A stretch of 64,000 nt of DNA. It comes from Candidatus Omnitrophota bacterium. GTDB lineage: Bacteria > Omnitrophota > Gorgyraeia > Aquiviventales > JACQRC01. The stretch is taken from positions 118-64,117 of the forward strand of contig JACQRC010000015.1 in NCBI GenBank assembly GCA_016206665.1. The letters are read 5' to 3'. Each line of letters opens with the position of its first letter. Position 1 is the stretch's first letter. The position numbers were made by a program, and so were the translations under genes. This document shows, in pieces, positions 18,592-59,176 of this stretch. The notes under the pieces were generated by a model, which searched no databases, was not told where the DNA came from, and was given only the letters and a program-made list of their open reading frames with translations.

Positions 18592-18617
18592 CGCGGGGGA
18601 GCTGGAGAGCACACGCC

Positions 18618-26572: not shown

Positions 26573-27451
26573 GTGCCAGACACGGCGGTGGTGACGGCCA
26601 CCAAGCGCTGCGTGGTCTGCGGTGCGAGCGCTTTCAGGACCGGTGTGCTCGGCACCCTGGCGCAGTGTGAGCTCTGCGGGCATATCTGCTATCCGGCCCA
26701 GTCGACGGTGTCAGCCGCCGAGCTGTACGGCAACGACTACTTCACCGGCGCCGAATACCTGGACTATTCCTCTCAGCAAGGGACGCTGGCGAAAAACTTT
26801 CGACGGTATCTACGGCTGATGCGGCGGTATGGGGCGGCGGGCGGTCGGCTGCTCGAGGTGGGGTGCGCCTACGGCTTCTTTCTGCAGGAGGCGCGGGAGG
26901 CCTTCCGGGTCGAGGGCATTGACGTCGCCGCCGAGGCTGTCGCCTTCGCGGCCGAGCAGCTGCAGGTGCCGGCCCGGAAGCTTGAGTTTCCCACGCTGCA
27001 GGCGGAGGAGCCCTACGATGTCGTGTGCTTGTGGGATACGCTGGAGCATCTGGCGGAGCCGGACGTCTATATCGCGAAGGCGTCGGAGGTGGTGCGGGAG
27101 GGCGGGCACCTCTTCCTGACCACCGTCGATATCGGCAGCTATCTGGCGCGCGTGCAAGGGCGGCGGTGGCGGCAGATTCATCCACCCACGCATCTGCACT
27201 ATTTTTCGCGGGCCACGATGCGCCGGCTGTTGGAGCGGTCAGGCTTCGAGGTGCTGGGCATCACGGCAGTGGGGACGCACCGCGAGATCACGAATATGCT
27301 GCGGGGGCTGAGCCTGTTCGGCAAAAGCCGGGTTGTCCGGCAGCTCGCCGAGCAGATGTTGGAGAAGACCGGCAGGATGTGGGGGCATACCAGCGTGTAT
27401 CTGAACCTGGGAGACAACATGTTTGTCGCGGCCCGGCGGCGACGGCCGTGA
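26573..27451 (+). CDS. Class-I SAM methyltransferase with N-terminal CxxC...CxxC zinc-ribbon (2 of 7)
   Basis: GTG 26573 lies 2 nt after the upstream stop. The ribbon is CVVCGAS...CELCGH and motif I is RLLEVGCAYGFF. Confidence 0.75.
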   Translation: MPDTAVVTATKRCVVCGASAFRTGVLGTLAQCELCGHICYPAQSTVSAAELYGNDYFTGAEYLDYSSQQGTLAKNFRRYLRLMRRYGAAGGRLLEVGCAYGFFLQEAREAFRVEGIDVAAEAVAFAAEQLQVPARKLEFPTLQAEEPYDVVCLWDTLEHLAEPDVYIAKASEVVREGGHLFLTTVDIGSYLARVQGRRWRQIHPPTHLHYFSRATMRRLLERSGFEVLGITAVGTHREITNMLRGLSLFGKSRVVRQLAEQMLEKTGRMWGHTSVYLNLGDNMFVAARRRRP

Positions 27452-29274
27452 GCACACTCACGGCTCCACCGCAGACGGTGACGCTACCGCGGCTCTCCAC
27501 GCACGGCTTGATGCAGACGGCGCTCCATCGCTGGCCGCTCTGGCTGGCCTGCCTCTTCAGCCTCGCGCTGGCGCTGCCGACCATTCAACCCCGCATCGCC
27601 GATCCCAATCTGATTGTCTATCAGAATGCGGACGAAGGCGGGATGATGGATTTGATGTGGTCCTATTACAGCGGTGAGCGGCGGGACAGCTTTCAGTGGG
27701 ATGTCGATTATGGGCTGGAGATGGTCTGGCTCTCCGGCCTGGCGCGTGTCGTCCTGGCGCCTGCGATGACGGTGACACCGGTGACGCTGGCGGTCCTGTT
27801 GCGGTGGTTGCATCTCGCCGCATGGCTGGCGGCGCTCGGCCTCATGTGGCGACTCGTGGGACGCCATGTCGGACGCGGCTATCCGCAGGCCGTGGCGGTC
27901 GCCCTGCTCGCCGTGCGGCCGGCCTTCGTGCATCTGACGACCTACTGGCAACCGGAGCCGGTGGTGCTGGCGTTGCTGCTGCTGGGGCTGGACGAGGCCT
28001 TGACCCACGCCGAGCGGCCCGCCTGGTGGCACATCGTGGCGGCGGTGGCCTGTGCCTCGCTGGCCTTTCTGGTGAAATACGCCGGGCTCTTTCTCCTGCC
28101 GGCGGTTGCGGCGTCCCTGGTGCTGGCAGCGCGGCGCACCCCGGGAGGTCCCGGCGCGGTGCCGCGCGTGCGCGGTGCGTGGCTGGTCTACGCTCTCGTC
28201 GGCGCGGTGATGGTGGGCTGCACCCTGACGGCCCTGGCGCACTACGTGCGGCATGCGACCGGCCGCACCTGGCTGCAGGAATACGGATGGTGGGGGAGCC
28301 TCACGGTGAATCCTGCGGCGATGGCGGTGTGCGTGGCCGGGGCGGGCTTGATGGGCCTGTCGCTGCTGTGCTGGCTGGTCAACCGCATCCGGGAACAGCA
28401 ACTCTGGAACACCATCAACAGCGCCCTGATGATGGTGGGGGGGCTCTTCGCCGCGTGGACGCTGCTGTTCGGATGCTGGTGGCTTGGGCATCCGGAGCGA
28501 TGGCTGTCCGCTTACAGCCAGATGGCGCCGGCCGCGCTGTCGACGAGGGAGGCCTTCCTCCAGCGGCTGGCGGGCCGGGTGCAGGCGTTTGATCCGTTGC
28601 TCGTGCTGTTGGCGGCCATCGTGGGTGGCGTCGCGATGACGGCCAGAGGCCGCCGCGTGATGTCTGAGACGATGGCGCACGACAAACGGAGGGTCCTCTT
28701 GTGGTTTGTCGTCCCGTTCATCGCGGTCATGGTGGCTCCGGTCCGCGTAGAGCGGCACCACATGCTGCCGTTCGTGGCGGCGGCGGTCGTGTGGATCTTG
28801 AGCAGCCTGCGGGGGCTTCGCAGCTTGCGGTTCCTGGCAGTTGCGGTGCTGGTGCTCGATCTGCTGCTCAACGCGGCGATCGTGGTGAGGGAACGGTCGT
28901 ATCAGGCCCGCCAGGGGGACGACATCGCGTTCGCGTTGGCCGGCTGGTGGGCAGGGCACATCCCACGCAGTGCCACCGTCGTGGCCGACCATTACCGGCG
29001 CGTCTACGTGCCGTCCGGCCATCCGAAGCTCAAGGTCTTCCGGGGCTCCGAGCATCTGGATAGCTGGGTCGAGCAGCTGCGCGATGCCGTGTCGCGATAC
29101 CATCCCGACTACGTGTACTACAACGCGGCTCCGGTGGCCGGCGCCATCGTGCCGCCGATTGAGGAGTTGCTGCCACGCACCAGCGTCGAGCTGGTACGGC
29201 AGTTCAGCAGCGAGGGCCGCGGCTACCGGCGCCTGGAGGGAGACCGATTTCTCATCTATCGGATCCTGCGATGA
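27448..29274 (+). CDS. Polytopic membrane protein, GT-C (ArnT/PMT_2-like) glycosyltransferase candidate, 1 of 3
   Basis: GTG 27448 sits in a GTGA overlap. It has many hydrophobic segments, an acidic first-loop motif NADEGGMMD, and a soluble C-terminal domain. The family call is tentative. Confidence 0.55.
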   Translation: MSTLTAPPQTVTLPRLSTHGLMQTALHRWPLWLACLFSLALALPTIQPRIADPNLIVYQNADEGGMMDLMWSYYSGERRDSFQWDVDYGLEMVWLSGLARVVLAPAMTVTPVTLAVLLRWLHLAAWLAALGLMWRLVGRHVGRGYPQAVAVALLAVRPAFVHLTTYWQPEPVVLALLLLGLDEALTHAERPAWWHIVAAVACASLAFLVKYAGLFLLPAVAASLVLAARRTPGGPGAVPRVRGAWLVYALVGAVMVGCTLTALAHYVRHATGRTWLQEYGWWGSLTVNPAAMAVCVAGAGLMGLSLLCWLVNRIREQQLWNTINSALMMVGGLFAAWTLLFGCWWLGHPERWLSAYSQMAPAALSTREAFLQRLAGRVQAFDPLLVLLAAIVGGVAMTARGRRVMSETMAHDKRRVLLWFVVPFIAVMVAPVRVERHHMLPFVAAAVVWILSSLRGLRSLRFLAVAVLVLDLLLNAAIVVRERSYQARQGDDIAFALAGWWAGHIPRSATVVADHYRRVYVPSGHPKLKVFRGSEHLDSWVEQLRDAVSRYHPDYVYYNAAPVAGAIVPPIEELLPRTSVELVRQFSSEGRGYRRLEGDRFLIYRILR

Positions 29275-32850: not shown

Positions 32851-34827
32851 ATGTGCGGCATCTGCGGTGACATTCGGACGCCCCACGGCGGCCTGGCGGC
32901 CCCCGGGCTGTTGACCGCCATGAACGAGGCCCAACGCCACCGGGGACCGGACGATACCGGTCTCTGGTGCGAGGGCCCCGTGGGGCTGGGCCATCAGCGC
33001 CTGGCGATTCTGGATCTGGACGGCGGCCGCCAGCCGATGGCCGATTCCTCCGGGCAGGTCGTGGTGACCTACAACGGCGAAATCTACAACTTCGTCGAGC
33101 TGCGCGAGCAACTCCGGGGATTGGGCCATCAGTTTCGCAGCACGGGCGACACCGAGGTCCTGTTACACGCCTACCTCGAGTGGGGGCTCGAGATGCTCCC
33201 GCGGCTGAGCGGGATGTTCGCGTTTGGCGTGTACGATGCGCGCCGCCGCTGGCTCTTTGCGGCGCGGGATCCGATGGGGCAAAAGCCCTTCCTCTATTAT
33301 CAGGATGCCGACGGCCTGGTCTTCGCCTCAGAGCTGACGGCGCTGCTGCGCCATCCCCGCGTGCCGCGCCGGCTGGATCTGACGGCGGTGGCCGGCTATC
33401 TGGTGCGCGAATATTTCACGGCGCCGGAAACACCGCTACAGGATGTCCGCAAGCTCCAACCGGGCGAGGCGATGCTCTATGAGCCGTCCACCGGCCGACT
33501 GCGCTGCTGGCGGTACTGGGATCCGATGGACGCGGTGCGGCGGCCCTTCCTGGACCGGCCGCCGACCATCGAGGACGAGGAGACGCTGGCGCAGGAACTG
33601 CGCACCGCCGTGGAGCGCCATTTGCGCAGCGACGTGCCGGTGGGGGTCTATTTAAGCGGCGGCGTGGACTCGACGGCGCTCGCCGCCCTGGCCTGTGACG
33701 TCATCGGGGGACAAAACCTCCAGACCTTCACGATCGGCTACGCCGATCCCTCCTTTGACGAATCGGCCGCCGCGCGGCGCACCGCGCAGCAACTGGGCAC
33801 GCGGCACCACGAACTGCGCTTGAGCCCCCAGGAATGCGTGGCCGCCGTGCCGGATGCGGTCGCCCATCTGGATGAGCCGCTCGCCGATCCCGGGTACCTG
33901 TCGGTCATCCAGGCGGCGAGCCTGGCGTCGCGCCACGTGAAGGTGGTGGTGGCCGGCGACGGCGGCGATGAATTACTGTGCGGCTACGAGACCTTCAAGG
34001 TGTGGGAGGCAGCCGACTGGATGCATCGGCAGCTGCCCGCCGGCGTGCGCGGCTTGCTGCGCGCCTGCGTGGCGCTCACACCGGCGCAGTATGGCTACAT
34101 GGGGCTGGGCTACCGCGCGCGCTATTTTCTACGCGGGCTCGACGTGCCGGCGGCCTGGCGCAATACCTGTTGGATCGGGGCCTTCACGCCGGATGAGGCC
34201 CGGGCCGTGCTGCGCGGCGGCGACGACACGCAGAGCCTGCGCGGCGACCACGGCTGGCCAACACTGTTCGACCATGTCCAGGAATTGCACCGGCTCGCCG
34301 CCCGGCACGACGGCCTCACGCGGCTAGGCCTGGAATACCAGCAGACCTATCTGCCGGGTGCCATCTGCGCGCATACGGACAAGGCGAACATGCGCTTCTC
34401 ACTTGAGGCGCGCAGTCCCTTACTAGACCCTGCGGTGGTGCAGTGCCTCAACCGCTTGCCGTCGTCGTGGAAGCTGCGCGGCTGGCAGTCGAAGTGGCTG
34501 CTGCGGCGCTGGCTCACCCGGCGGCTCGGGCGCGCGCTGCCGGTCAAGAAGCACGGATTCGCAGCGCCGCTGGCGCTGTGGCTGCGCCGCGAATTGCGGA
34601 CATTTGCCGAGACGCACCTCAACCGGGACGCCATCGAAGCGGCCGGCGTGTTCCATCCCGAGAAGGTCGCGCGGCTGTGGCAGGAGCACGCCGGCGGCCG
34701 GGCCAACCATGCGAAGCCGCTGTGGACCGTGCTGGTCTTCCAGGTCTGGCACCGTCAGCACCTGCAGGCGCCGGTGGCGCGCGAGGCGGCGACCAGGTTG
34801 ACGCAGATGAAGGAGGTTGCGGCATGA
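32851..34827 (+). CDS. Asparagine synthase (glutamine-hydrolysing)-family amidotransferase, copy 1
   Basis: It has the N-terminal nucleophile MCGI, then HRGPDD, YNGEIYN and the PP-loop VYLSGGVDS. Confidence 0.9.
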   Translation: MCGICGDIRTPHGGLAAPGLLTAMNEAQRHRGPDDTGLWCEGPVGLGHQRLAILDLDGGRQPMADSSGQVVVTYNGEIYNFVELREQLRGLGHQFRSTGDTEVLLHAYLEWGLEMLPRLSGMFAFGVYDARRRWLFAARDPMGQKPFLYYQDADGLVFASELTALLRHPRVPRRLDLTAVAGYLVREYFTAPETPLQDVRKLQPGEAMLYEPSTGRLRCWRYWDPMDAVRRPFLDRPPTIEDEETLAQELRTAVERHLRSDVPVGVYLSGGVDSTALAALACDVIGGQNLQTFTIGYADPSFDESAAARRTAQQLGTRHHELRLSPQECVAAVPDAVAHLDEPLADPGYLSVIQAASLASRHVKVVVAGDGGDELLCGYETFKVWEAADWMHRQLPAGVRGLLRACVALTPAQYGYMGLGYRARYFLRGLDVPAAWRNTCWIGAFTPDEARAVLRGGDDTQSLRGDHGWPTLFDHVQELHRLAARHDGLTRLGLEYQQTYLPGAICAHTDKANMRFSLEARSPLLDPAVVQCLNRLPSSWKLRGWQSKWLLRRWLTRRLGRALPVKKHGFAAPLALWLRRELRTFAETHLNRDAIEAAGVFHPEKVARLWQEHAGGRANHAKPLWTVLVFQVWHRQHLQAPVAREAATRLTQMKEVAA

Positions 34828-35846
34828 CACCACCCACCACGCTCGGTACGGCCCCCCGCGTGAAACCGCCGCCGGATCGCGTCGGCACACCGGAGGTGTC
34901 GATCGTCGTGCCGATTCATAATGAGCAGGACAGCCTCGCTGCGCTCGTTGAGCAGATCCGTGCCGCCCTGGAGCCGACGCCGTGGCCCTGGGAGATCCTG
35001 GGCGTGGACGACGGCAGCTCGGATGGCAGCGCCGAAGCGTGGACGCGGCTGGTCATGGAGGACTCGCGCCTGCGGCAGGTACAGTTGACCCGCCGCTTCG
35101 GCCAGACCGCGGCCATCGCCGCCGGGATCGCAGCGGCGCGGGGCCAGTATGTGGTGCTGTTGGATGCCGATTTGCAGAATGACCCGGCTGATATTCCCGA
35201 GATGGTCACGCATCTTGAGTCCGGCTACGACGTGGTGAGTGGCTGGCGCCAGGACCGGCAGGATTCCTGGCTGACGCGGCGCCTGCCGTCGCAGATGGCC
35301 AATGCCCTCATCTCGCGGGTCAGCGGGGTCAGGCTCCACGATTATGGCTGCACCCTGAAGGTGTACCGGCGGGAATGCCTGGAGGGGCTGCAGCTCTTCG
35401 GGGAGATGCACCGCCTGATCCCTCTCTACCTGGCCTGGCAGGGAGCCCGCATCATGGAGATGCCCGTCCACCACCGGCCGCGGCTCGCGGGCCGCTCCAA
35501 GTACGGGTTGTCGCGCCTGCCGCGCGTCATCCTCGATGTGGGCGTGGCCATGTTTCTGATTCGGTATTCGGACCGGCCGATGCGCGTCTTCGGCGGCTTC
35601 GGCCTGGTGAGCATCGGGGCCGCGTGCGTGTGCGCCGTCTGGGCCATCTACTGGAAGTTGGTCCAGGGGGTCGCATTCATCGTCACGCCCCTGCCGCTGC
35701 TGACGGTGTTCTTCTTCCTCGTGGGGGCGCTGGCCCTGCTGATGGGCCTGTTGGCGGAGATCATGGTGCGGACCTATTACGATGCGTCGCCCCGCCCCTA
35801 TTACCGCGTCAAGGAAGTCACGGGATCTGTGGACCGTGTGACATGA
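34824..35846 (+). CDS. GT2 polyprenyl-phosphate sugar synthase (GtrB/ArnC-like, C-terminal TM helices)
   Basis: ATGA overlap. Motifs are VSIVVPIHNE, GVDDGSSDGS and LDADLQNDP, with C-terminal hydrophobic helices. Confidence 0.85.
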   Translation: MTPPTTLGTAPRVKPPPDRVGTPEVSIVVPIHNEQDSLAALVEQIRAALEPTPWPWEILGVDDGSSDGSAEAWTRLVMEDSRLRQVQLTRRFGQTAAIAAGIAAARGQYVVLLDADLQNDPADIPEMVTHLESGYDVVSGWRQDRQDSWLTRRLPSQMANALISRVSGVRLHDYGCTLKVYRRECLEGLQLFGEMHRLIPLYLAWQGARIMEMPVHHRPRLAGRSKYGLSRLPRVILDVGVAMFLIRYSDRPMRVFGGFGLVSIGAACVCAVWAIYWKLVQGVAFIVTPLPLLTVFFFLVGALALLMGLLAEIMVRTYYDASPRPYYRVKEVTGSVDRVT

Positions 35847-37135
35847 AGCGCAAGCTGATGGCGGCAGCCGGACTGGTCACGTTCCTGCTGCGGCTGGGCC
35901 TGGTACTCGCCACGCAGAGTTACCGGCATCCCACGACGTGGGAGTTCGAGCGGGTGACGCAGAATATGATGGCGGGGCGCGGTTTCATGCTGCCGCATCT
36001 GGGGATTCCGTACTATTCCCTGCATCCGCCGCTCTATGATCTGCTGTCGCTCATGGTCTACACCCTCGTCGGGCATCACCAGGCGGCCATCCTGGTCATG
36101 CAGGCGGTCTTTAGCAGTCTGCTGGCCGCCCTGACCGTGCATCTGGCCCATCGGTTCACCGGGTCGCTGGCGGCCGGCATCCTCGCGGGAGGCTTGGTGG
36201 CGACCCATCCGGGTCTGCTCTACTACGACATCCACCATCTCCATCCCCTGAGTTTTGGGGCGCTGCTCTTTGCCCTCATTCTCTGGGCCGCCATGCGCTG
36301 GTGGGTGTACCGCCGCATCCGGGATGCGGCCTGGCTGGGCGCGGCCGTGGCCCTCGCCATGCATGAGCGGGGCACCGCCGGCCTGTTCCTGCTGCCGGCC
36401 ATGGTCTGGATGGGATGGCATCTGCGCGTCCACCGGCGGCGTGTGGCCGCGTCCCTCGGCGCGCTCGTGGCCGGGTGCGTCCTCGTGCTGGCCCCCTGGA
36501 CGATCCGTAACTATCTCGTCCACGGGCGCTTCGTGCTCATGATCACGCTGAAGAACGAACATCTGTGGCTGGGGAACAATCCGCGGTTCTCCGGCTCAGC
36601 GCTGACCCAGGCCAACGAACCCATTTTCAACGCCATCCCACCTGAGCTGCTCAGCCGCTTGGAGGCTCAAACCAATGAGGTGGACCAGCAGCGAATCTTC
36701 GGGGAGGTAGCGTGGGCCTACATCCGCCAGGATCCCGGCGCCTTCGTGGTGCGCACGCTGCGCAAGCTGTACTACTTTTTCTGGTTCTCGCCCCAATCCG
36801 GGTTGTGGTACCCGCAGCGCTACCTGCACTGGTATCGTCTCTACTATGGGTCAGTGCTGGGGCTCGCGATGGTGGGCTGGGTCCGAAGCGTGCGGGCCGC
36901 CGCCCCGCGGACGCGGGCCATGGCTTGGGCGATGGTGGGACTGATCCTGAGTGTTGCGGTGGCTCAGAGTCTGTGCTATGTGGAAGGCCGGCACCGCTGG
37001 GGGATTGAACCGCTCCTGCTGATGTTTACCGCTGGCGGCGGCGCGTGGCTGGTGGAGCGACTCCGGCAATGTTGGTGGACGATGCGGGCGAACGCAGGGC
37101 CGTTCGTCATCGGGGATGCGCGACGTTGGAAATAG
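35843..37135 (+). CDS. GT-C (ArnT/PMT_2-like) membrane glycosyltransferase, 2 of 3
   Basis: ATGA overlap. The N-terminus is MKRKLMAAAGLVTFLLRLGLVLATQSYRHPTTWEFERVTQNMMAGRGF, and the protein is polytopic and hydrophobic throughout. Confidence 0.7.
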   Translation: MKRKLMAAAGLVTFLLRLGLVLATQSYRHPTTWEFERVTQNMMAGRGFMLPHLGIPYYSLHPPLYDLLSLMVYTLVGHHQAAILVMQAVFSSLLAALTVHLAHRFTGSLAAGILAGGLVATHPGLLYYDIHHLHPLSFGALLFALILWAAMRWWVYRRIRDAAWLGAAVALAMHERGTAGLFLLPAMVWMGWHLRVHRRRVAASLGALVAGCVLVLAPWTIRNYLVHGRFVLMITLKNEHLWLGNNPRFSGSALTQANEPIFNAIPPELLSRLEAQTNEVDQQRIFGEVAWAYIRQDPGAFVVRTLRKLYYFFWFSPQSGLWYPQRYLHWYRLYYGSVLGLAMVGWVRSVRAAAPRTRAMAWAMVGLILSVAVAQSLCYVEGRHRWGIEPLLLMFTAGGGAWLVERLRQCWWTMRANAGPFVIGDARRWK

Positions 37136-46959: not shown

Positions 46960-48107
46960 AGCCGTTGCGCCTGCTGCTGATCACCAACAGCCTCGAGGTC
47001 GGCGGCGTGGAAACGAATCTCGTCGCGCTGGCCCACGGATTTCGACGGCGTGGCCATGCCGTGACCGTCGCGGCTGCACCTGGCCCGCTGCGGGCAGCGC
47101 TGCCAAGCGAGATCCGCTACGCCGCGGTGCCCGCCGATGGCGGTCTACCGTGGATCTGGTGGCGGGCCGCGGCCGGGGTCGCGCGGGTATTGCGGGAAGC
47201 GGAGATCGGCGTCATCCACGCCTTCTCACCGCGCGCCACGTTGATCGCCGATCTGGCCCGGTGGCAACTGGGTGGTTTGAACGGGCATCGCGTGATCCGA
47301 CCGCTGCTCGTGAGCGTGCCGGGCGGGCTGCAGGAGTCGCCGGCGGAGAGCGCCGTCGTAACCTACGGCCGGCTCTGGCCGCTGTGGGGGGCGGACCGCA
47401 TTCTCGCGATCTCGCAGGAGATCCGAAAGACGGTGAACCGGCTGCCCGGCCTGGCTGCGCGCGTCACGTCGCTGTGCCACATCGGGCTGGACCTCAGCAA
47501 GTTTCAGGCGGTCGCCCCGGAGACGGCAGTGCGGCTGCGGCAGACGTGGGGATGGGATGCCGCGACCCCCATCATCGGCACCATCGGTGCCCTGGCCGAA
47601 CGCAAGAGCCATGACCTGTTTCTGCGCACCGCCAGTCTGGTGCACCGCCGGCATCCGGAGGCACGATTCGTGATCGTCGGAGAGGGGCCGCTGCGTCAGC
47701 GATTGACGGCGCTGGCCCAGGAGCTCGGGCTGGGGGAGGCGGTGCGGTTTCTCGGGTTGCGGCACGACATCCCTGAGATTCTGGCGGCGCTCGATCTGTA
47801 CATCAAGCCTGGCATCGTCGAAGGTTTTGTCGGGATCACCGTGCTGGAGGCGATGGCGATGGCCAAACCGGTCATCGCTTTTGAGACGGAGGATGTCAAA
47901 GCGGCGATTCGTGACGGCCAGACAGGGTTGCTGGTGCCGTGCGGGGATGTGGCGGCGCTGGCCGAAGCCACCATCTCGCTGGTGGAGCAACCGATGCTGC
48001 GCCAGCGATACGGGCAGGCGGGGCACCGCCTCGTCGAAGCAGAATTTGAAGTTTCGCGGGTCACGGAACGCTTGGAGCAATTTTACGCGGAGGCGCTGGG
48101 TGCTTAA
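46956..48107 (+). CDS. GT4 family glycosyltransferase
   Basis: GTG 46956 sits in a GTGA overlap. Motifs are LLLITNSLEVGGVE and GIVEGFVGITVLEAMAMAKPVI. Confidence 0.85.
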   Translation: MKPLRLLLITNSLEVGGVETNLVALAHGFRRRGHAVTVAAAPGPLRAALPSEIRYAAVPADGGLPWIWWRAAAGVARVLREAEIGVIHAFSPRATLIADLARWQLGGLNGHRVIRPLLVSVPGGLQESPAESAVVTYGRLWPLWGADRILAISQEIRKTVNRLPGLAARVTSLCHIGLDLSKFQAVAPETAVRLRQTWGWDAATPIIGTIGALAERKSHDLFLRTASLVHRRHPEARFVIVGEGPLRQRLTALAQELGLGEAVRFLGLRHDIPEILAALDLYIKPGIVEGFVGITVLEAMAMAKPVIAFETEDVKAAIRDGQTGLLVPCGDVAALAEATISLVEQPMLRQRYGQAGHRLVEAEFEVSRVTERLEQFYAEALGA

Positions 48108-49164
48108 GGTCGCCATCATCGGCTGCGGCTATTGGGGACAGAACCTGATCCGCAACTGCCAGGATACGGACGGGGTGTCGGTGGTGGCGTGCGTCGACGC
48201 TCGGCCGGACCGGCTGGCCTACATCCGTCAGCGATTTCCCCACGTCGGGCTCTACGATGACTGGTCCCGCCTCGTGCAAGCCGAGGCCTCGGGAGGGCTC
48301 CAGGTCGACGCGGTCGTCGTCGCCACCCCGCCCTCGAGCCATGCGGCGCTGGCGAAGGCGGCGCTGGAACTGGGCAAACATGTGCTCGTTGAAAAGCCCT
48401 TCACGCTCCGCTCCGAAGAGGCCGCGGCGCTGGTGGCGCTGGCGAAGGCGCGCGGGGTGCGGTTGATGGTGGATTTCACCTTTGTCTACGCGGGGGCCGT
48501 GCGGCGCATCAAGGAGCTGATCGACGACGGTGAGTTGGGGGAGCTGTACTACTTCGACTCCAGCCGGATCAACCTGGGGCTGCTCCAGCCGGACACGAAC
48601 GTCGTGTGGGACCTGGTGGCGCATGATGTCTCGATGCTGTTGTATCTGACCGGCCAACATCCCATCGCCGTCTCGGCACACGGCGGCTCCTTCATCCGCG
48701 AGGGTATCCCGGAGATCGCCTACGTCAACCTCACCTTCCCACAGGGGCTGATGGCGCACATCGCCGTGAGCTGGCTCTCGCCGGTCAAGGTGCGCCAGAC
48801 GCTCATCGGCGGCAGTAAGAAGATGGTCTTGTACGATGACATCGAAAACATCGAAAAGGTGCGCGTCTACGACAAGGGCGTCCTGCTGAATGCCTCGGAG
48901 CCGCAGGGGCTGTTAGAGCGCCAGCTCACCTATCGTACGGGCGACGTCTGGGTGCCGAAGCTCGACACGACCGAGCCGCTCAAGGCGATGTGTGCGCATT
49001 TCCGGGACAGCATCGACGATCCACGGCGGGTGCTGCTGACCGATGGGCAGTTCGGATGGGAAGTGGTGCGGATCCTGGAGCGGGTCGAGGCCTCGATGCA
49101 GCGGCGCGGCCAGGAGCTGCGCATCGAAACCCCGGCCGCTCAGCCGAAGGAGTTGACGGCGTGA
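48100..49164 (+). CDS. Gfo/Idh/MocA-family NAD-dependent sugar oxidoreductase (WbpB-like)
   Basis: GTG 48100 has an 8-nt overlap. Motifs are KVAIIGCGYWGQN and HVLVEKP. Confidence 0.85.
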   Translation: MLKVAIIGCGYWGQNLIRNCQDTDGVSVVACVDARPDRLAYIRQRFPHVGLYDDWSRLVQAEASGGLQVDAVVVATPPSSHAALAKAALELGKHVLVEKPFTLRSEEAAALVALAKARGVRLMVDFTFVYAGAVRRIKELIDDGELGELYYFDSSRINLGLLQPDTNVVWDLVAHDVSMLLYLTGQHPIAVSAHGGSFIREGIPEIAYVNLTFPQGLMAHIAVSWLSPVKVRQTLIGGSKKMVLYDDIENIEKVRVYDKGVLLNASEPQGLLERQLTYRTGDVWVPKLDTTEPLKAMCAHFRDSIDDPRRVLLTDGQFGWEVVRILERVEASMQRRGQELRIETPAAQPKELTA

Positions 49165-49255
49165 CCCCACCACCTGGCGCGCCCCGCCGTCCCTGCGGGG
49201 CGTCGGCCGTACGCCCGACAGGCCCTACGGGCCGTGCGGCAGGTGGTGGGGTGAC
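49161..49255 (+). repeat. 95-bp palindromic intergenic repeat, copy 1 (REP/MITE-like)
   Basis: GTGAC direct repeats lie at 49161-49165 and 49251-49255. A perfect 13-bp terminal inverted repeat pairs ACCCCACCACCTG (49164-49176) with CAGGTGGTGGGGT (49240-49252). An internal perfect 8-bp stem pairs CGCCCCGC (49180-49187) with GCGGGGCG (49195-49202). A second copy lies at 58007-58101. Confidence 0.85.
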
Positions 49256-49931
49256 GCGGCAGGACGCGCAGATTTTTCCGAAGGTGACGCTGGGCCGTCC
49301 GGCCGAGGTGGCCGGCCCCTGCATTCTGGGCCAGCCGCCCCGCGGCCGCCGCGCCGGCGAACTACCGTTGGTGATCGGGCCACACGCCACGATCCGCGCC
49401 TTCACCGTCATCTACGCGGGCACGACGATCGGTGCGCATCTCTCCACCGGCCACGGGGCGTTGATTCGCGAGGACAACCGCCTGGGGGACGATGTCAGCG
49501 TCGGCACGCATGCGGTGCTGGAGCATGGCAACCGGATCGGCAGCCACGTGCGCATCCACTCCGGCAGCTTCCTGGAACTGGTGATCCTCGATGACCACGT
49601 CTTCATCGGGCCGGGCGTCGTCTTCACCGATGACCCGCACCCGATGTGCCCGCGCTACGAGGAGTGCGTGCGCGGGGCGACGGTGCGCGCGTGGGCCAAG
49701 ATCGGGGGGAACGCGACGATCCTGCCCGGGGTGGTCATCGGTGCCCATGCCTTGGTGGGGGCGGGTTCGGTGGTGACGGAAGATGTGCCGGAGGCAGCGG
49801 TGGTGGCGGGTAATCCGGCCCGCATCATTAAGCGGGTGGAAGAGCTGCGCTGCATCAAAGGCTATTTTGAGCGGGTGTACGAGTGGGAAACCGCGAAAAC
49901 ACCGCGTCTGGCGCGGCCGGCGGCACGGTAA
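49251..49931 (+). CDS. Left-handed beta-helix (hexapeptide-repeat) acetyltransferase (WbpD-like)
   Basis: Hexapeptide repeats include IGPHATIRAFTVIYAGTTIGAHLSTGHGALIREDNRLGDDVSVGTHAVLEHGNRIGSHVRIHSGS. The start is probably GTG 49251 at the right end of the repeat. GTG 49161 is also in frame and would add 30 repeat-encoded codons. Confidence 0.75.
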   Translation: MTRQDAQIFPKVTLGRPAEVAGPCILGQPPRGRRAGELPLVIGPHATIRAFTVIYAGTTIGAHLSTGHGALIREDNRLGDDVSVGTHAVLEHGNRIGSHVRIHSGSFLELVILDDHVFIGPGVVFTDDPHPMCPRYEECVRGATVRAWAKIGGNATILPGVVIGAHALVGAGSVVTEDVPEAAVVAGNPARIIKRVEELRCIKGYFERVYEWETAKTPRLARPAAR

Positions 49932-49941
49932 CCAGACGACC

Positions 49942-51846
49942 ATGTGCGGCATCTGCGGGGTGTGGCATTGGACGGAGGAACCGGTGACGGAGCAGCTGCT
50001 GCAACGGATGGCGGCTCAGCTGCGCCACCGCGGCCCCGACGATGAAGGGACCGCGCGCCCCGCGCCAGGCGTGGGCCTGGGCCACACGCGGCTGAGCATC
50101 ATCGACTTGAGCGCCGCCGGCCATCAGCCGATGGCCAACGCCGCCAAGACGGCGTGGATCGTCTACAACGGCGAGATCTACAATTACCGCACGCTGCGGG
50201 ACGAACTGCAGCGAGCCGGCGCCGTCTTCGTCAGTCAATCGGATACCGAAGTGATTCTCCACGCCTACGAGCGGTGGGGACTGGACTGTCTCGAGCATCT
50301 CGACGGGATGTTCGCCTTCGGCCTGTGGGATGCCCGCCAGCAACAGCTCTTCTGCGCCCGCGACCGCACCGGCAAGAAGCCGCTCTTCTATTATGAGGGG
50401 CCGTCGGTGTGGGCCTTCGCCTCGGAGATCAAGGCGCTGCTGGTTCATCCGGGCATCCCGGACGAGATTAACCTCGAGGCCCTGCCGGCATACCTCGCCC
50501 ACGGGTATGTCCCATCGCCTGACACCTTCTATCGCGGGATCCGGCAGCTGCCGCCAGGGTGCCGCCTCGTCCTGAGCCGCCAGCGGCGGACGGCCGAGGT
50601 CACACCGTACTGGGAGGTGCACCGCCGCGTCCGACGGACGGAGCCATCCGCGGCCGAGGCCCGCACCGAAGTGCGCCGCCTCGTGACGGAGGCGGTGCGC
50701 AAACGGCTCATCGCCGACGTACCGTTAGGGGCGTTCTTGAGCGGCGGGCTCGATTCGACGATCGTCGTCGGCGTGATGAGCCAATTGATGGACCAGCCCG
50801 TGCGCACCTTCAGCATTGGCTTCTCCGGCGATGCGCGCTTTGACGAGACCCGGTACGCCCGGATCGCCGCGCGGCGGTTTGGGACCCGGCACACCGAGTT
50901 CATCGTCGAGCCGCAGGCCTTCGAGCTGCTGGATACCCTGGTCTACCATCACGACCAGCCCTTCGGCGACTCCTCGGCGATTCCCGCCTTTTTGCTGTCG
51001 CGGCTGACACGGCAGCAGGTGACGGTGGCCCTCAATGGTGACGGGGGGGATGAGCTGTTCGCCGGCTATCTGCGGTTCGCGGTCTGCGTCCGGGCCGAAC
51101 GCTGGCCGCTGTGGATGCGGCGCCGGATGCACCACCTCGCTCAGCGGCTGGCCGGCTGGTCCGGTCGTCACCACGCGCTGGCGAGCGCTGCGCGTCTGTG
51201 CGAGGCGGCCCGGCTGCCCCCGGCGGAACGGCTCTTCCGGCTGACCGCGTACTTCCCTCAGCCGGAAGAGGTGCTGCACCCCGAGTTGGCCGGCCTCGTG
51301 CGGGACGATCGGCTCATGGGAAATTTTCGCGAGATCTTTCAGGCGTCGCCCAACGGCACGCTGCTCTCCAAGCTCTTGTACGTGAATCTGCGTGAATATC
51401 TCGCCGGCGACTTGCATGTGAAGATGGACCGGTGTAGCATGGCCCATGGGCTGGAGACGCGCTCGCCCCTGCTCGACACGGCGCTCATCGAATATGCACT
51501 GGGATTGCCGGACGCCATGAAGTTGCGTGGCTGGCGGACCAAAGTGATCCTGCGGGACGCCTTCGCGGATTTGTTGCCGCCGGAGATTCAGCATCGTGGG
51601 AAATGGGGATTCGGCGTGCCGCTCGGGGCGTGGTTTCGGACTTCGCTGCGCGCGCGGCTTCAGGAACTCCTGCTCGATCCCCAGGCGCAGTGGTTGGCCT
51701 ACCTACGGCGTGAAGCCGTGCAACAGTTGGTGGACGAACATCTCCTGGGAGCGCGCGATCACAGTCAGCGGTTGTGGTCGTTGTTGACGCTGGAAACGTG
51801 GCTGCGGTTGCGCAAGGCAGGCGCCTTGCTGGTCAGCCATGCGTGA
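49942..51846 (+). CDS. Asparagine synthase (glutamine-hydrolysing)-family amidotransferase, copy 2
   Basis: ATG 49942. Motifs are MCGICG, HRGPDD, YNGEIYN and AFLSGGLDS. Confidence 0.9.
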   Translation: MCGICGVWHWTEEPVTEQLLQRMAAQLRHRGPDDEGTARPAPGVGLGHTRLSIIDLSAAGHQPMANAAKTAWIVYNGEIYNYRTLRDELQRAGAVFVSQSDTEVILHAYERWGLDCLEHLDGMFAFGLWDARQQQLFCARDRTGKKPLFYYEGPSVWAFASEIKALLVHPGIPDEINLEALPAYLAHGYVPSPDTFYRGIRQLPPGCRLVLSRQRRTAEVTPYWEVHRRVRRTEPSAAEARTEVRRLVTEAVRKRLIADVPLGAFLSGGLDSTIVVGVMSQLMDQPVRTFSIGFSGDARFDETRYARIAARRFGTRHTEFIVEPQAFELLDTLVYHHDQPFGDSSAIPAFLLSRLTRQQVTVALNGDGGDELFAGYLRFAVCVRAERWPLWMRRRMHHLAQRLAGWSGRHHALASAARLCEAARLPPAERLFRLTAYFPQPEEVLHPELAGLVRDDRLMGNFREIFQASPNGTLLSKLLYVNLREYLAGDLHVKMDRCSMAHGLETRSPLLDTALIEYALGLPDAMKLRGWRTKVILRDAFADLLPPEIQHRGKWGFGVPLGAWFRTSLRARLQELLLDPQAQWLAYLRREAVQQLVDEHLLGARDHSQRLWSLLTLETWLRLRKAGALLVSHA

Positions 51847-55808: not shown

Positions 55809-57006
55809 CCGCTTCCTGCGCGGCGGGCTCTACGTCCTCGCCGTCTGCCTCCCATTTTCCATTGCCCTCGTGGAGGTGAGCTTCGGCGTGATGCTCTTCG
55901 CCTGGGCGGGACGCCTGTGGGAACGCCGGCGGAGCCGGGCGGCCTGCTGGACGCTGCCGGCGCAACTCACGTGGCCGCTGGCCGCCTACGTGGTAGCGTG
56001 CCTGCTCTCAGTGGCGTGGAGCACGGATTGGCGTTTGAGCCTGACCGGGTTGATCGGCAAAACCCTCGAGTACCTGGGGTTTCTCGTGATCGTCGCCGAC
56101 GTGGCGCGTGACCGCGCCGTGGTCCGCAGGGCGGTGATGCTCTTCGGCATCTCGGCGGTCCTGGTCTGCCTGGATGGGTGGCTGCAGGAGTGGACAGGGT
56201 CGGATCTGCTCCGGCACACCATGGCCCGCACCGGCTACGGGCGCATGACCGGGCCGTACCGGAGCCCCAACGATCTGGCGACGTACTTGATGGTCACGCT
56301 CCTGCTGGCGTGGGCAGCCTGGTCGCAACCGGGGCGGGCCGGGCGGTGGTGGCGCCTCGGCGGTCTGCTCCTGCTCTTCATCACCTTTGTGCGGACCGAC
56401 TCGCAGGGGGCCTGGCTGGGCGTGGGAGCCGGCGGGCTGCTCCTCGTGCGGCGCCTCAAACGCGCGTGGCAGCCGCTCGTGGTCGGCCTGCTGCTGCTTC
56501 TGGCCGGCGCCGTGGTGGTGTGGCGGCATCATGGCCTGCCGTCGTACGCGCAGGCGATCGGTCACGGTCCCGAGGATCGGTGGTTCATGTGGCAGGCAGG
56601 GCTCGGCATGGTGCGGGACCATCCGTGGACCGGGGTGGGGCTCAACACCTTCATGGCCAACTACCTGCAGTATTGGGTGGGCGGGGAGCAGATGCCGCGT
56701 TATGCGCACAACTGTTATCTGCAGACGGCCGCGGAAGTCGGCATCCCGGGTCTGCTCGCTTTTCTGTGGCTACTGGCGGCACTCCTCGTGACGTGGTGGC
56801 GCCGTCTGGGCGATCTGGCGCCTGAGGCGGACCGTGCCCTCCTCGTCGGTCTCTCGGCAGCTGCGCTGGCTTTTCTTGTCCAGTCGGCCGTGGACACGAA
56901 TTTTTACGCCCTCCGGCAGGTTGTCCTGTTCTGGGTCGTGGCCGGACTGGCGACGGGCCTGGCCCAGTCCGCCGCCGCCCGTCCCGCCGCCATCGGTTCC
57001 TCCTGA
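55801..57006 (+). CDS. O-antigen ligase / Wzy_C-family polytopic membrane protein
   Basis: It is polytopic. The loop with RTDSQGAWLG and the later AHNCYLQTAAEVGIPGLLAF (HN..L...E.G motif) are typical of WaaL/Wzy_C proteins. Confidence 0.7.
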   Translation: MSSRFLRGGLYVLAVCLPFSIALVEVSFGVMLFAWAGRLWERRRSRAACWTLPAQLTWPLAAYVVACLLSVAWSTDWRLSLTGLIGKTLEYLGFLVIVADVARDRAVVRRAVMLFGISAVLVCLDGWLQEWTGSDLLRHTMARTGYGRMTGPYRSPNDLATYLMVTLLLAWAAWSQPGRAGRWWRLGGLLLLFITFVRTDSQGAWLGVGAGGLLLVRRLKRAWQPLVVGLLLLLAGAVVVWRHHGLPSYAQAIGHGPEDRWFMWQAGLGMVRDHPWTGVGLNTFMANYLQYWVGGEQMPRYAHNCYLQTAAEVGIPGLLAFLWLLAALLVTWWRRLGDLAPEADRALLVGLSAAALAFLVQSAVDTNFYALRQVVLFWVVAGLATGLAQSAAARPAAIGSS

Positions 57007-58010
57007 TGGATGCGCCGCCACAGGCGCTGGATCCCCGCGCCGTTGTGTGGATTCGTCTCGACCGATTCGGGGAGGTGTTGTTGAACCTGCCGGCGGTCGG
57101 GGTCCTGCGCCGCGCCTATCCCGCCGCCCGCATCACCCTGCTCGTCCAGCCGTATCTCAGCGAATTAGTGGCCGGCTCTCCGGACGTGAACGAGGTCCTC
57201 AGCTACGCGCCGTCATCCGGTGATGCCTGGTGGCGTGAAGCGTGGCGTGTCGCGCGGTTGCTGCGACCGCACCGGTTCGATGTGGCGGTCGTGGCGCATC
57301 CCAAGAAATCGCTGCACCTCGCCGCCGCGTTGGCCGGGATTCCGCGGCGGCTGGGCTATGATCGGAAGTGGGGCTGGCTCCTGACGCATCGTCTTGCGGA
57401 TGACAAGGTGGCACGGCGCCGGCATGAGGTGGATGCCAACGTCCATCTGCTGGAACGGCTGGGGATTGTCGCTGAACCGGTCCCGCTGTCGCTCCCGGTC
57501 GCTGCGAAGACGGCCATCCGCGTCGCCGCCCTGCTCAGACAGGAGGGAATCCACGATGGCGATTGCATAGTGGGCCTGCACCCGTGGACGTCCCATCCGC
57601 GCAAGCAGTGGCCGGTCGAGCGCTTCAGGCAATGTCTCGAACGGCTCGCCACGACCACGCCGGCGGTGCCGGTTATCCTCGGCGGCGTCGAGGAGGCCGA
57701 AGCCGCCCGACGGCTCTGCGCAGGGCTCGGCTCGCGGCCGGTGTCGCTGGCCGGCCGCGTGAATCTTCTGGAACTGGCGGCGCTATTGCAGCGGTGCCGG
57801 GTGTTGCTCACCAATGACAGCGGCCCCATGCATCTGGCTGCCGCGGTGGGCACACCGGTCGTCGCGCTCTTCGGCGGCAGCGACCCTGCCGCCTCGCCGG
57901 AGCGGTGGGCTCCGCGGGGTGACGGCCATACCGTGTTGCGCGCCGAGGAGCTCTCCGCGATTTCGGTGGAGCAGGTCGTGCAGGCCGTCCAGCGTTACCT
58001 GGCGTCATGA
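57006..58010 (+). CDS. GT9 family glycosyltransferase (heptosyltransferase-like), copy 1
   Basis: TGATG junction. Motifs are IRLDRFGEVLLNLPAVGVLRRAYP and the GT9 signature LLTNDSGPMHLAAAVGTPVVALFG. Confidence 0.8.
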   Translation: MDAPPQALDPRAVVWIRLDRFGEVLLNLPAVGVLRRAYPAARITLLVQPYLSELVAGSPDVNEVLSYAPSSGDAWWREAWRVARLLRPHRFDVAVVAHPKKSLHLAAALAGIPRRLGYDRKWGWLLTHRLADDKVARRRHEVDANVHLLERLGIVAEPVPLSLPVAAKTAIRVAALLRQEGIHDGDCIVGLHPWTSHPRKQWPVERFRQCLERLATTTPAVPVILGGVEEAEAARRLCAGLGSRPVSLAGRVNLLELAALLQRCRVLLTNDSGPMHLAAAVGTPVVALFGGSDPAASPERWAPRGDGHTVLRAEELSAISVEQVVQAVQRYLAS

Positions 58011-58101
58011 CCCCACCACCTGCCGCATGGCCCGTAGGGCCGGGCCCGCCGATGGCGGGCCGCCCGCCGTTCCGGCGGGGCGCGTCAGGTGGTGGGGTGA
58101 C
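58007..58101 (-). repeat. 95-bp palindromic intergenic repeat, copy 2 (inverted relative to copy 1)
   Basis: ATGAC (58007-58011) and GTGAC (58097-58101) flank the TIR ACCCCACCACCTG (58010-58022) / CAGGTGGTGGGGT (58086-58098). The reverse complement aligns by hand to copy 1 at both ends (about 27/29 and 31/35 identities). The central part is divergent but still self-complementary. Confidence 0.85.
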
Positions 58102-59176
58102 CCCCCAGCGCGTGCTGATCGTGAACCCCTTTGGCATCGGAGATGTCCTCTTCACGACACCGGTGATTCGCGCGCTGCGGCAGGCCTGGCCGCAGGCCTA
58201 TCTAGCCTTTCTCGGCAACCGCCGCACCGAACCGCTGCTACGGCACAATCCGCACGTCAACGAGGTCGTGGTGTTTGAGAAGGACGAGTTTCGCCAATGT
58301 TGGCGTCACGAGTCGCCGTGGGCGTGCCTGCGTCGGCTCTGGGCATGGGTGCGCGAGTTGCGGGCCAAGCGGTTTGAGCTGGCGCTGGATTTCTCCTTCA
58401 ACAGCCGCGTCGGCTTTCTGCTGTGGCTGATGGGCATTCCCCGGCGCGTGGGCTTCGATTACCGTCGGCGCGGGCTGTTCCTCACGGAGCGTGTCCCCTT
58501 GGCCGGTTTCGACGACAAGCCCGTGGTGGATTACTACTTTGACTTGCTCGCCGAATTGGGCATTACGGCCGCTGACCGTCACCTGGAGGTGGTCGTGCCA
58601 CCAGAACTCCAGCGGTGGGCGCAAAAGCGCCTGCGAGAGATGGGCATCCGTGCTGGGGAGGCCTTGGTCGGGCTCATCCCCGGTGGTGGGGCGAGCTGGG
58701 GTACCTCCGCTTCGCTTCGTCGTTGGCATGCGGAGGGTTTCGCGGCCGTGGCACAGCGGCTCAAGCGCCGGCCTGGCATGCAGCTCCTCCTCTTTGGCGA
58801 TCACGCGGACCGTGAGTTGTGCCCACCCATCGTGAGCCTCGTTCCCGACATCCATGATCTATGCGACCAGCTCAGTTTAATGGAGTTTGTGGCCTTGTTG
58901 GCTCAGTGCCGGGTCGTAGTGTGCAACGACGGTGGTCCCTTACACTTGGCGGTAGCGGTCGGCACCCGCACGGTGTCCGTCTTTGGACCGGTGAGCGAGC
59001 AGGTCTACGGTCCGTACGCGCCCGACGGCGCTCATCGGGTCATCAGCTACGACCCGGGCTGCCGCCCTTGCTACCAACGATTCCATCTGCCGCCGTGCCC
59101 CATCGACCGCGAGTGCCTGCGGCGGATCACGGCCGACGACGTGGCCCGGGCCGCGGAGGAGCTACTCGCGGCATGA
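58097..59176 (+). CDS. GT9 family glycosyltransferase (heptosyltransferase-like), copy 2
   Basis: Motifs are RVLIVNPFGIGDVLFTTPVIRAL and VVCNDGGPLHLAVAVGTRTVSVFGP. The start is probably GTG 58097 at the right end of the repeat. ATG 58007 is in frame and would add 30 repeat-encoded codons. Confidence 0.8.
   Translation: MTPQRVLIVNPFGIGDVLFTTPVIRALRQAWPQAYLAFLGNRRTEPLLRHNPHVNEVVVFEKDEFRQCWRHESPWACLRRLWAWVRELRAKRFELALDFSFNSRVGFLLWLMGIPRRVGFDYRRRGLFLTERVPLAGFDDKPVVDYYFDLLAELGITAADRHLEVVVPPELQRWAQKRLREMGIRAGEALVGLIPGGGASWGTSASLRRWHAEGFAAVAQRLKRRPGMQLLLFGDHADRELCPPIVSLVPDIHDLCDQLSLMEFVALLAQCRVVVCNDGGPLHLAVAVGTRTVSVFGPVSEQVYGPYAPDGAHRVISYDPGCRPCYQRFHLPPCPIDRECLRRITADDVARAAEELLAA

Follow-up and report, generated by a model that had tools for sequence, protein, structure and literature searches.

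Rickettsia palindromic elements (RPEs) are short, palindromic mobile repeats that often lie in frame within unrelated protein-coding genes, where a peptide is added and the protein is kept (PMC10969869). Mycobacterial interspersed repetitive units (MIRUs) are likewise mobile, and are found inserted at start codons, together with a coupled internal open reading frame (ORF) and a 4-nt overlap (PMC12548453). REPINs, the inverted doublets of repetitive extragenic palindromic (REP) units, persist over long times with a structure that is conserved more than their sequence (PMC3337134, PMC3116915), and the IS1031 group of the IS5 family of insertion sequences (IS) recognizes three nucleotides as its insertion site (PMC2516522). 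Here we analyze a 64,000-nucleotide stretch of a Candidatus Omnitrophota genome (contig JACQRC010000015.1, positions 118 to 64,117; hereafter the window), in which two gene junctions carry closely similar 90-nt spacers. Each spacer is, with high probability, one copy of a non-autonomous transposable element that resembles the MITEs (miniature transposable elements with inverted repeats). The evidence is that of insertion, with empty sites, a 3-bp target duplication, multiple copies per genome, copies both in frame within genes and at gene junctions, and structural covariation. The two sites, junctions A and B, are laid out as follows.

48100..49164, plus strand: Gfo/Idh/MocA-type oxidoreductase, upstream gene of junction A, from a GTG start at 48100 to the ORF end (Pfam GFO_IDH_MocA, E 1.9e-27).
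49161..49164, plus strand: old GTGA start-stop overlap of junction A, read from the sequence; the orthologous junctions in contigs L075, L076 and L077 have this overlap only.
49165..49251, no strand assigned: element copy A, 87 bp, with left repeat CCCCACCACCTG at 49165-49176 and right repeat CAGGTGGTGGGG at 49240-49251.
49251..49254, plus strand: rebuilt GTGA of junction A, made of the element's last G and the right duplication TGA (49252-49254), with a new in-frame GTG at 49251.
49251..49931, plus strand: hexapeptide-repeat acetyltransferase, downstream gene of junction A (Pfam Hexapep, E 2.4e-22).
57006..58010, plus strand: GT9 glycosyltransferase, upstream gene of junction B (Pfam Glyco_transf_9, E 5e-32).
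58007..58010, plus strand: old ATGA start-stop overlap of junction B, with the pre-insertion start ATG at 58007-58009 (sequence and the empty site in contig L061).
58011..58097, no strand assigned: element copy B, 87 bp, in the opposite orientation to A, with repeats at 58011-58022 and 58086-58097.
58097..58100, plus strand: rebuilt GTGA of junction B, made of the element's last G and the right duplication TGA (58098-58100), with an in-frame GTG at 58097.
58097..59176, plus strand: second GT9 glycosyltransferase, downstream gene of junction B (Pfam Glyco_transf_9, E 4.1e-31).

The initial annotation had pointed to repeated motifs at these junctions, GTGAC at 49161 and 49251 and ATGAC at 58007 with GTGAC at 58097, and the sequence bears out both the positions and the spacing of exactly 90 nt in each pair. 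It had also proposed that the left unit supplies the upstream TGA stop and the right unit an in-frame GTG for the acetyltransferase or the second GT9, and here the ORFs and the Pfam matches agree. The stops of the oxidoreductase (TGA 49162-49164) and of the first GT9 (TGA 58008-58010) are the left copies of the duplication, and the pre-insertion start at junction A was GTG 49161-49163. Overlaps of the same kind are present at other junctions of the operon, as had been observed before (GTGA at 46956, ATGA at 53038). The size of the element had to be revised. In place of a 90-bp element with a 5-bp GTGAC duplication, which we rejected, the flanks across the family and the empty sites give an 87-bp element and a 3-bp duplication of TGA. 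Only the central TGA of the 5-bp unit is duplicated target; the G that leads the right unit is the element's last base, the C after the left TGA is its first base, and the C after the right TGA belongs to the native flank (L061 likewise reads ATGAC).

Measured from repeat end to repeat end, both copies span 87 nt and are bounded by the same perfect 12-nt terminal inverted repeats. The interior of each forms three hairpins. Copy A folds with an energy of -70.2 kcal/mol (z -5.4) and copy B with -75.5 kcal/mol (z -6.1), and copy A can be aligned with 65 other copies. Reverse-complementing one of the two gives identity at 70/87 positions, against 46/87 without it, which places them in opposite orientations. 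No further copy was found in the window with up to 4 end mismatches allowed. Exact matches to the 11-mer CCCCACCACCT are confined to the four element ends, and the window holds 10 matches in total at up to one mismatch against 1.45 expected by chance.

Comparison with related contigs supports the earlier proposal that each copy was inserted into a start-stop overlap, formerly NTGA, with the flanking genes preserved on both sides, and the empty sites that this proposal predicts were found at both junctions. For junction B, metagenome contig L061 reads ...CTACCTGCCGTCATGACGCCTGGGCGTGTGCTG... (GTCATGACGCC), a single ATGA overlap followed by MTPGRVLMVNPFGIGDV. At the ATGA its GT9 orthologue, 74% identical to the second GT9, begins with MTPGRVLMVNPFGIGDV; Wzy_C and GT9 genes lie upstream as in the window, and the pairwise alignment with the window at this junction has a single clean 90-nt gap. 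For junction A, the oxidoreductase and acetyltransferase genes are joined without a spacer by a 4-nt overlap, ATGA in L075 and L076 and GTGA in L077. The closest acetyltransferase homologues, P0002 (78% identical) and P0003 (77%), keep the same order of oxidoreductase, acetyltransferase and asparagine synthase, and both begin within a few codons of 49251. Because related contigs have the same gene pairs without the spacer, both spacers in the window are insertions. Short-read assemblies of the region break within or beside the element (L078, and the 1032-nt contig of P0001), which fits a repeat that fragments metagenome-assembled genomes (MAGs).

The two copies belong to a dispersed family. 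A scan of GTDB species-representative genomes for two exact ends 45-70 nt apart recovered at least 60 loci, and the flank statistics refer to 62 copies, those from the 60 loci listed together with the window. All loci listed are from MAGs titled Candidatus Omnitrophota, Planctomycetia/Planctomycetales or Elusimicrobia. One Omnitrophota MAG (JACPSQ01) has at least 10 loci and several others have 3-4. The 12-nt ends are identical throughout, at locus GC contents from 0.38 to 0.68, and are prolonged by 2-5 co-varying pairs. Elements range from 64 to 96 bp and have no capacity to code for a transposase. The 3-nt flanks are identical in 42/62 copies, where chance would give 1 in 64, and since left and right flanks co-vary between copies they are duplicated target rather than part of the element. 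Among these 42 duplications are 26 of TGA/TCA and 6 of TAA/TTA (together 32/42 of TNA type), 5 of TGG/CCA, 3 of TCG/CGA and one each of AAG and ACA; TGA/TCA accounts for only 3% of trinucleotides in the family loci. Three copies have a 4-nt duplication, TTGA. A purine precedes T[GA]A in 24/32 copies against a background of 49%, a bias that fits survival at ATG and GTG codons.

Variant ends with the same layout and TGA flanks (CCCCACCCCCTG, TCCCATCACCTG, TCCCACTACCTG and TCCCACCACCTG) define sister subfamilies at L009:1930-1998, L059 at about 5786-5860, L010 at about 1243-1313 and L017:6544-6685, one of them 142 nt long. Since such subfamilies exist, the exact-end scan undercounts the family. 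Nested or abutting copies bounded by TGA...TGA form clusters at L029:343-604, L042:4721-4997 and L048:3864-4108.

Element lengths and end sequences are compatible with translation. Among the 62 copies, length modulo 3 is 0 in 50, 1 in 5 and 2 in 7. The 12-nt end is free of stops in all six frames, and across whole elements 297/390 frames are open, compared with 273.9 +/- 6.1 in dinucleotide shuffles of the interior (maximum 288 in 200 shuffles). A long frame runs without interruption through at least 20 copies, and genuine host proteins with in-frame copies include NuoF, a Mg-chelatase/ComM-type AAA protein, a metallo-beta-lactamase-fold (MBL) hydrolase, a radical SAM protein, a TolC-like OEP, ComEC and a Wzy_C protein; gene contexts in the high-GC loci are partly ambiguous. 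In NuoF, host residues 290-315 match 3 residues of the solved NuoF 8qby_F. The ComM-like AAA protein has two stretches of Pfam match, the best of which resumes at profile position 70 (residue 312), and the insert occupies residues 283-309. All three phases are in use, read as PHHL...QVVG, (T)PPP...GGG(V) and PTT...RWWG. Where the interior begins with A, the left repeat end makes a TGA (CCTGA...; L019:4111-4123 and L009:1301-1313); this stops the upstream gene 12 nt into the element, and ...DPTT takes the place of its native C-terminus. Both window copies and several others lie at gene junctions, but across the family this is not an exclusive preference; many copies lie in frame within genes.

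At the window junctions, insertion duplicated 3 bp of target, mostly TGA across the family, with both copies hitting the TGA of an NTGA overlap. The left TGA remains the stop of the upstream gene, and a ribosome from that gene should terminate there, overlapping the old start. The element's last G and the right TGA rebuild GTGA and place an in-frame GTG before the native second codon of the downstream gene. A loss of translational coupling, one of the consequences that the initial annotation considered, does not follow: on the left the old overlap survives, and on the right a GTGA is re-formed. Element and duplication together make 90 nt without a stop in that frame, so the old start is also in frame; both 30-codon read-throughs are stop-free with the translations previously given. 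Translation from the old start would add 30 N-terminal residues rich in Pro, Gly and Arg (VTPPPGAPRRPCGASAVRPTGPTGRAAGGG or MTPPPAAWPVGPGPPMAGRPPFRRGASGGG), and for both copies such an extension is the default expectation because the old start is in frame. It is a plausible outcome, favored for copy A, whose old Shine-Dalgarno (SD) sequence and GTG are intact: an SD-like AAGGAG (-10.7 kcal/mol) lies 8 nt before the old GTG. The old start of copy B never had an SD (-3.3 kcal/mol, and -1.5 at the empty site) and would have to rely on termination-reinitiation.

Alternatively, initiation might occur at the rebuilt GTG, which lies 2-4 nt behind the SD-like AGGTGGTG of the right repeat. Pairing of this right end with the anti-SD is worth -12.3 kcal/mol, compared with -11.6 kcal/mol for GGAGG. 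In any copy, as at 49240-49254 and 58086-58100, AGGTGGTG matches the SD consensus AGGAGGTG at 7 of 8 positions and the left repeat resembles the anti-SD CACCTCCT; with one repeat SD-like and the other anti-SD-like, the element's stem mimics an SD/anti-SD duplex. The gene caller applied to an independent Logan contig picked the rebuilt GTG, yielding exactly the 226-aa acetyltransferase (P0001, 100% identity).

The arrangement of the window is seen again at gene junctions elsewhere in the family.

L052, 80 nt: copy between nuoJ and nuoK.
L050, 71 nt: copy between the genes for argininosuccinate lyase and a GATase.
L059, 74 nt: copy between a 433-aa ORF without family assignment and the gene for YaeQ.
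L014:5470-5561, minus strand, 92 nt: copy between murE and murF.
L047, 75 nt: copy between the genes for a CBM48 protein and a type III pantothenate kinase (CoaX).

The copies in L052, L050, L059 and L014 are 2 mod 3 in length, so the old start is out of frame, and the frame that opens at the old NTG ends at the right TGA overlapping the rebuilt GTG, as a relay mini-ORF. The downstream gene therefore has to use the rebuilt GTG, or the relay mini-ORF that ends at the right TGA, which implies that a start at the rebuilt GTG can suffice. Among the loci listed, none of the two-gene junctions had a copy of length 1 mod 3. In L014, removing the 92-nt element and one TGA joins the murE-like and murF-like genes into one frame of 1042 codons, whereas with the element the first gene reads through to the right TGA and the second begins at the GTG that overlaps it. 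Possibly a fused gene was split here by the element, or else the assembly may be one base off. At L010:1670-1747, a 212-aa ORF stops at the left TAA of the duplication and the frame of a DFP (CoaB) domain crosses the element; this may be a CoaBC-type fusion that the insertion has split or bridged.

The interiors of the elements conserve a fold. On both strands of both window copies an outer stem of 13-17 bp encloses three hairpins (-68 to -75 kcal/mol, z -4.5 to -6.5). Interiors alone, compared with shuffles across 65 distinct copies, have a median z of -2.8, with 75% below -2, and the minimum free energy fold of the whole element has 2 or 3 hairpins in 52/65 copies. In an alignment of 20 copies that were picked for their three-hairpin fold, and so carry a selection bias, two-sided changes occur at 14/27 pairs (57 cells), values reached in 0/500 shuffles and far above those of slid controls. 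The interior sequence thus varies while 2-3 hairpins are kept through compensatory changes. The loops are mostly triloops closed by C-G, and GNA or its complement TNC occupies 67/130 perfect-stem triloop hairpins; on each strand, the hairpin that adjoins the 5' end is preferentially of GNA type. As DNA, d(cGNAg) is an unusually stable mini-hairpin. Stem mismatches include G.T 13 times and A.C 10 times, with no preference, and across the family the orientation to the host gene is the same in 20 copies, opposite in 20 and ambiguous in 20. With G.T not favored, no orientation bias and the window copies opposed, a two-fold symmetric constraint at the level of DNA is indicated over a strand-specific RNA.

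Other explanations of the spacers have to be set against these data. Were they immobile native palindromes of intergenic or N-terminal coding sequence, alike through local duplication or gene conversion, a count of just two copies in 64 kb, both in one operon, would be readily understood; but both orthologous junctions have empty counterparts, at least 60 further loci in unrelated contexts and taxa share identical ends and 3-nt duplications, and an independent Logan assembly (L078, a contig of SRR12113385) ends 29 nt into copy B, as assemblies often do at repeats. The empty sites and the dispersed family refute immobile spacers, and we give this account practically no chance. Scarcely better placed is programmed translational bypass or removal at the RNA level, in which the triplets at the foot of the stem would serve as take-off and landing sites. 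A strong hairpin flanked by identical triplets would suit such a mechanism, and virtual excision in L014, L052 and L056 restores a long open frame that is absent from the intact sequence. Yet murE/murF in L014 and nuoJ/nuoK in L052 resolve as ordinary junctions with a rebuilt GTGA, and the L056 frame has no protein-family match. The multiples of 3 in 50/62 lengths, the 20 or more copies within an uninterrupted long frame and the depletion of stops all count against bypass, since neither frame nor stop bias would be selected if the element were skipped. On these length-frame and stop statistics we rejected it as a highly improbable explanation.

A role as cis-acting RNA, with the operon copies co-opted as attenuator, RNase III or other processing site, mRNA stabilizer or tuner of coupling, strikes us as improbable. 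The RNA folds on both strands are very stable, and the downstream start region is sequestered in a stem whose opening would need translation through the element, as in the coupling model based on RNA unfolding (PMC12548453). The initial annotation had suggested an attenuator hairpin inside the operon, but the stems are followed by TGACGCGG and TGACCCCC, with no T-run, and no intrinsic terminator was called at either window element; without a T-tract the hairpin is not an intrinsic terminator. Nor was a promoter called at either element, and Rfam 15 has no match in the window at gathering score, the best sub-threshold hit over copy B having an E of 1.4. The opposed window copies, the 20 to 20 split of orientations in the family and the parity of G.U pairs with A.C mismatches leave a strand-specific RNA function unsupported. 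In close relatives these junctions have no element, which shows that operon function does not need one. Unlikely too, though slightly less so, is a REPIN-like element moved by a single-strand enzyme of HUH/RAYT type, in which each half would be a REP unit (12-nt head plus small hairpin) and the inverted pair a mobile hairpin. Inverted REP doublets with a spacer are the described REPIN layout (PMC3337134). The two-fold symmetric build, the conserved head followed on each strand by a c-GNA-g triloop hairpin, the conservation of structure rather than sequence, the absence of bias in strand or orientation and the lack of a matching IS in 635 kb of fetched loci all fit this account. Against it, the 3-nt direct-repeat flanks co-vary (TGA, TAA, TGG, CCA, TCG, AAG, ACA), which is the mark of a target cut with a stagger and is not left by HUH transposition. 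Copies often lie within genes, while REPs and REPINs are by definition extragenic; a GTAG-type head is missing, and no RAYT gene was seen, although none was searched for.

The MITE-like reading thus remains the preferred one. Mobilization would be by a cut-and-paste enzyme making 3-bp staggered cuts, as the duplication suggests; the IS5 family would then be the nearest precedent by analogy. The class of enzyme can be argued only from the 3-bp duplication because no autonomous parent was found in the 635 kb. The parent search covered pairs of ends separated by 120-3500 bp, tolerating 2 mismatches in each end (3 overall) and requiring the 3-nt flanks to match. It yielded only longer or nested non-coding variants (the 142-nt element of L017 and the clusters of L029, L042 and L048), along with one pair in L047 that is likely due to chance. 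An exact-match search of viral_contigs, bearing on phage carriage between phyla, returned nothing. Several points weigh against this reading or parts of it. Neither an autonomous element nor a transposase with these ends was found in the 635 kb of fetched loci. Perfect duplications are lacking in 20/62 copies, some of them nested or decayed. Retention of the hairpins is not what a plain deletion-derived MITE predicts, and may reflect a mechanism or function that depends on structure. A stem of at least 13 bp is predicted to sequester the rebuilt GTG together with the SD-like motif, unless it is opened by a ribosome, so that the use of this GTG is uncertain, and the assignment of hosts to phyla rests on record titles.

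With ends that are stop-free and carry stop and start information, and lengths that are mostly multiples of 3, the survivors are copies at gene ends or at tolerant in-frame sites, and we infer that the insertions are tolerated rather than useful. It is tempting to go further and suppose, tentatively and with rather more doubt than conviction, that the family is more than tolerated debris: a mobile element of long standing which spreads horizontally and which evolution has made invisible to translation. Its ends would form a portable module of stop, SD-like motif and GTG in either orientation, open in six frames with Pro/Gly-rich end codons that serve as benign surface loops, and its c-GNA-g DNA mini-hairpins would be kept for structure-dependent mobilization by enzymes of a class that so far has no link to 3-bp duplications. 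If true, this would be a new kind of structure-defined transposon common to three phyla of mostly uncultivated bacteria.

Both junctions lie within a long single-strand run of genes. Almost all long ORFs of the window (1-64000) are on the plus strand, and GC skew is positive all along. The window as a whole is one very large surface-glycan cluster with a NeuB-cytidylyltransferase fusion (18540-20420), asparagine-synthase paralogues (32851-34827 and about 49930-51846), several GT4 genes, a PMT_2 protein, a Wzy_C ligase, the two GT9 genes, an ATP-grasp ligase and a radical SAM protein. ORFs of 580-770 aa without a Pfam match occur at 8567-10534, 23266-25578, 27025-29274 and 35375-37135.

These observations account for two 90-nt spacers in a surface-polysaccharide operon as probable recent transposon insertions. 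For genome annotation they matter through spurious N-terminal extensions, split or fused gene calls (as at murE/murF, and at the TAA-ended ORF beside the CoaB-domain ORF) and breaks in MAG contigs. For the study of protein evolution, the in-frame copies offer a natural set of insertions of 23-31 residues in conserved enzymes. For mobile DNA, a family whose ends are identical from 38% to 68% GC, and whose interior is free to change if it folds, raises the questions of which enzyme moves it and why the fold is kept.

In searches of the literature neither end sequence turned up in a relevant paper, nor did a report linking MITEs to these phyla, and the family is apparently undescribed. It joins two rare traits, residence in frame within essential genes, as in RPEs, and insertion at start-stop overlaps with coupling kept, as in MIRUs. 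The likeness to RPEs lies in the in-frame copies in nuoF, the comM-like gene, the MBL hydrolase gene and others. RPEs, however, are about 100-150 bp long and confined to Rickettsia, and their families are defined by a conserved encoded peptide, whereas the present family measures 64-96 bp, occurs in Omnitrophota, Planctomycetia and Elusimicrobia MAGs and keeps only its 12-nt ends and its secondary structure; a TGA-type 3-bp duplication and the use of all three frames set it further apart from RPEs as described. Insertion at start codons, as in MIRUs, is seen at both window junctions and at nuoJ/nuoK, murE/murF and CBM48/CoaX. MIRUs are units of 46-101 bp, often in tandem arrays, and to our knowledge they are restricted to mycobacteria and have neither terminal inverted repeats nor a defined target duplication. 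In the present family there is one copy per site, the inverted ends are perfect, 3 bp of target are duplicated, and copies also lie within genes.

The known bacterial MITEs (Correia/NEMIS, ERIC, Nezha, MITEAba12) and the Tourist-type elements of the PIF/Harbinger-IS5 group are similarly small and numerous, with inverted ends, a target duplication, a foldable transcript and no transposase gene. In size, inverted ends, fixed-length duplication, dispersed copies and filled versus empty sites the present family has what defines a MITE, the parent IS excepted. It differs from them in that no parent IS is known, in that copies within one genome vary widely in interior and length while their ends stay perfect, in interior hairpins kept by compensatory change, and in ends that leave all six frames free of stops and re-create GTG and TGA. 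The 3-bp duplication at a TNA-type target recalls IS1031 and PIF/Harbinger. The three-nucleotide site of the IS1031 group is a TNA motif, and that of Tourist elements is TWA. With the REP/REPIN-RAYT system the family shares the succession of end, GNA hairpin, variable middle, TNC hairpin and end, but REPINs are extragenic, have a GTAG-type head and lack a target duplication, whereas the present element makes a 3-bp duplication and is common in coding sequence. Bypass elements such as the T4 gene 60 gap and the mitochondrial byp elements also have matched triplets around a structured insert in coding sequence; the present insert is in frame, stop-free and compatible with translation, and bypass is not needed. 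Each property of the family therefore has a precedent, and what we rate as unprecedented is their combination: a TGA-type 3-bp duplication, ends that rebuild stop and start, openness in six frames, an interior conserved in structure only, and a distribution over three phyla.

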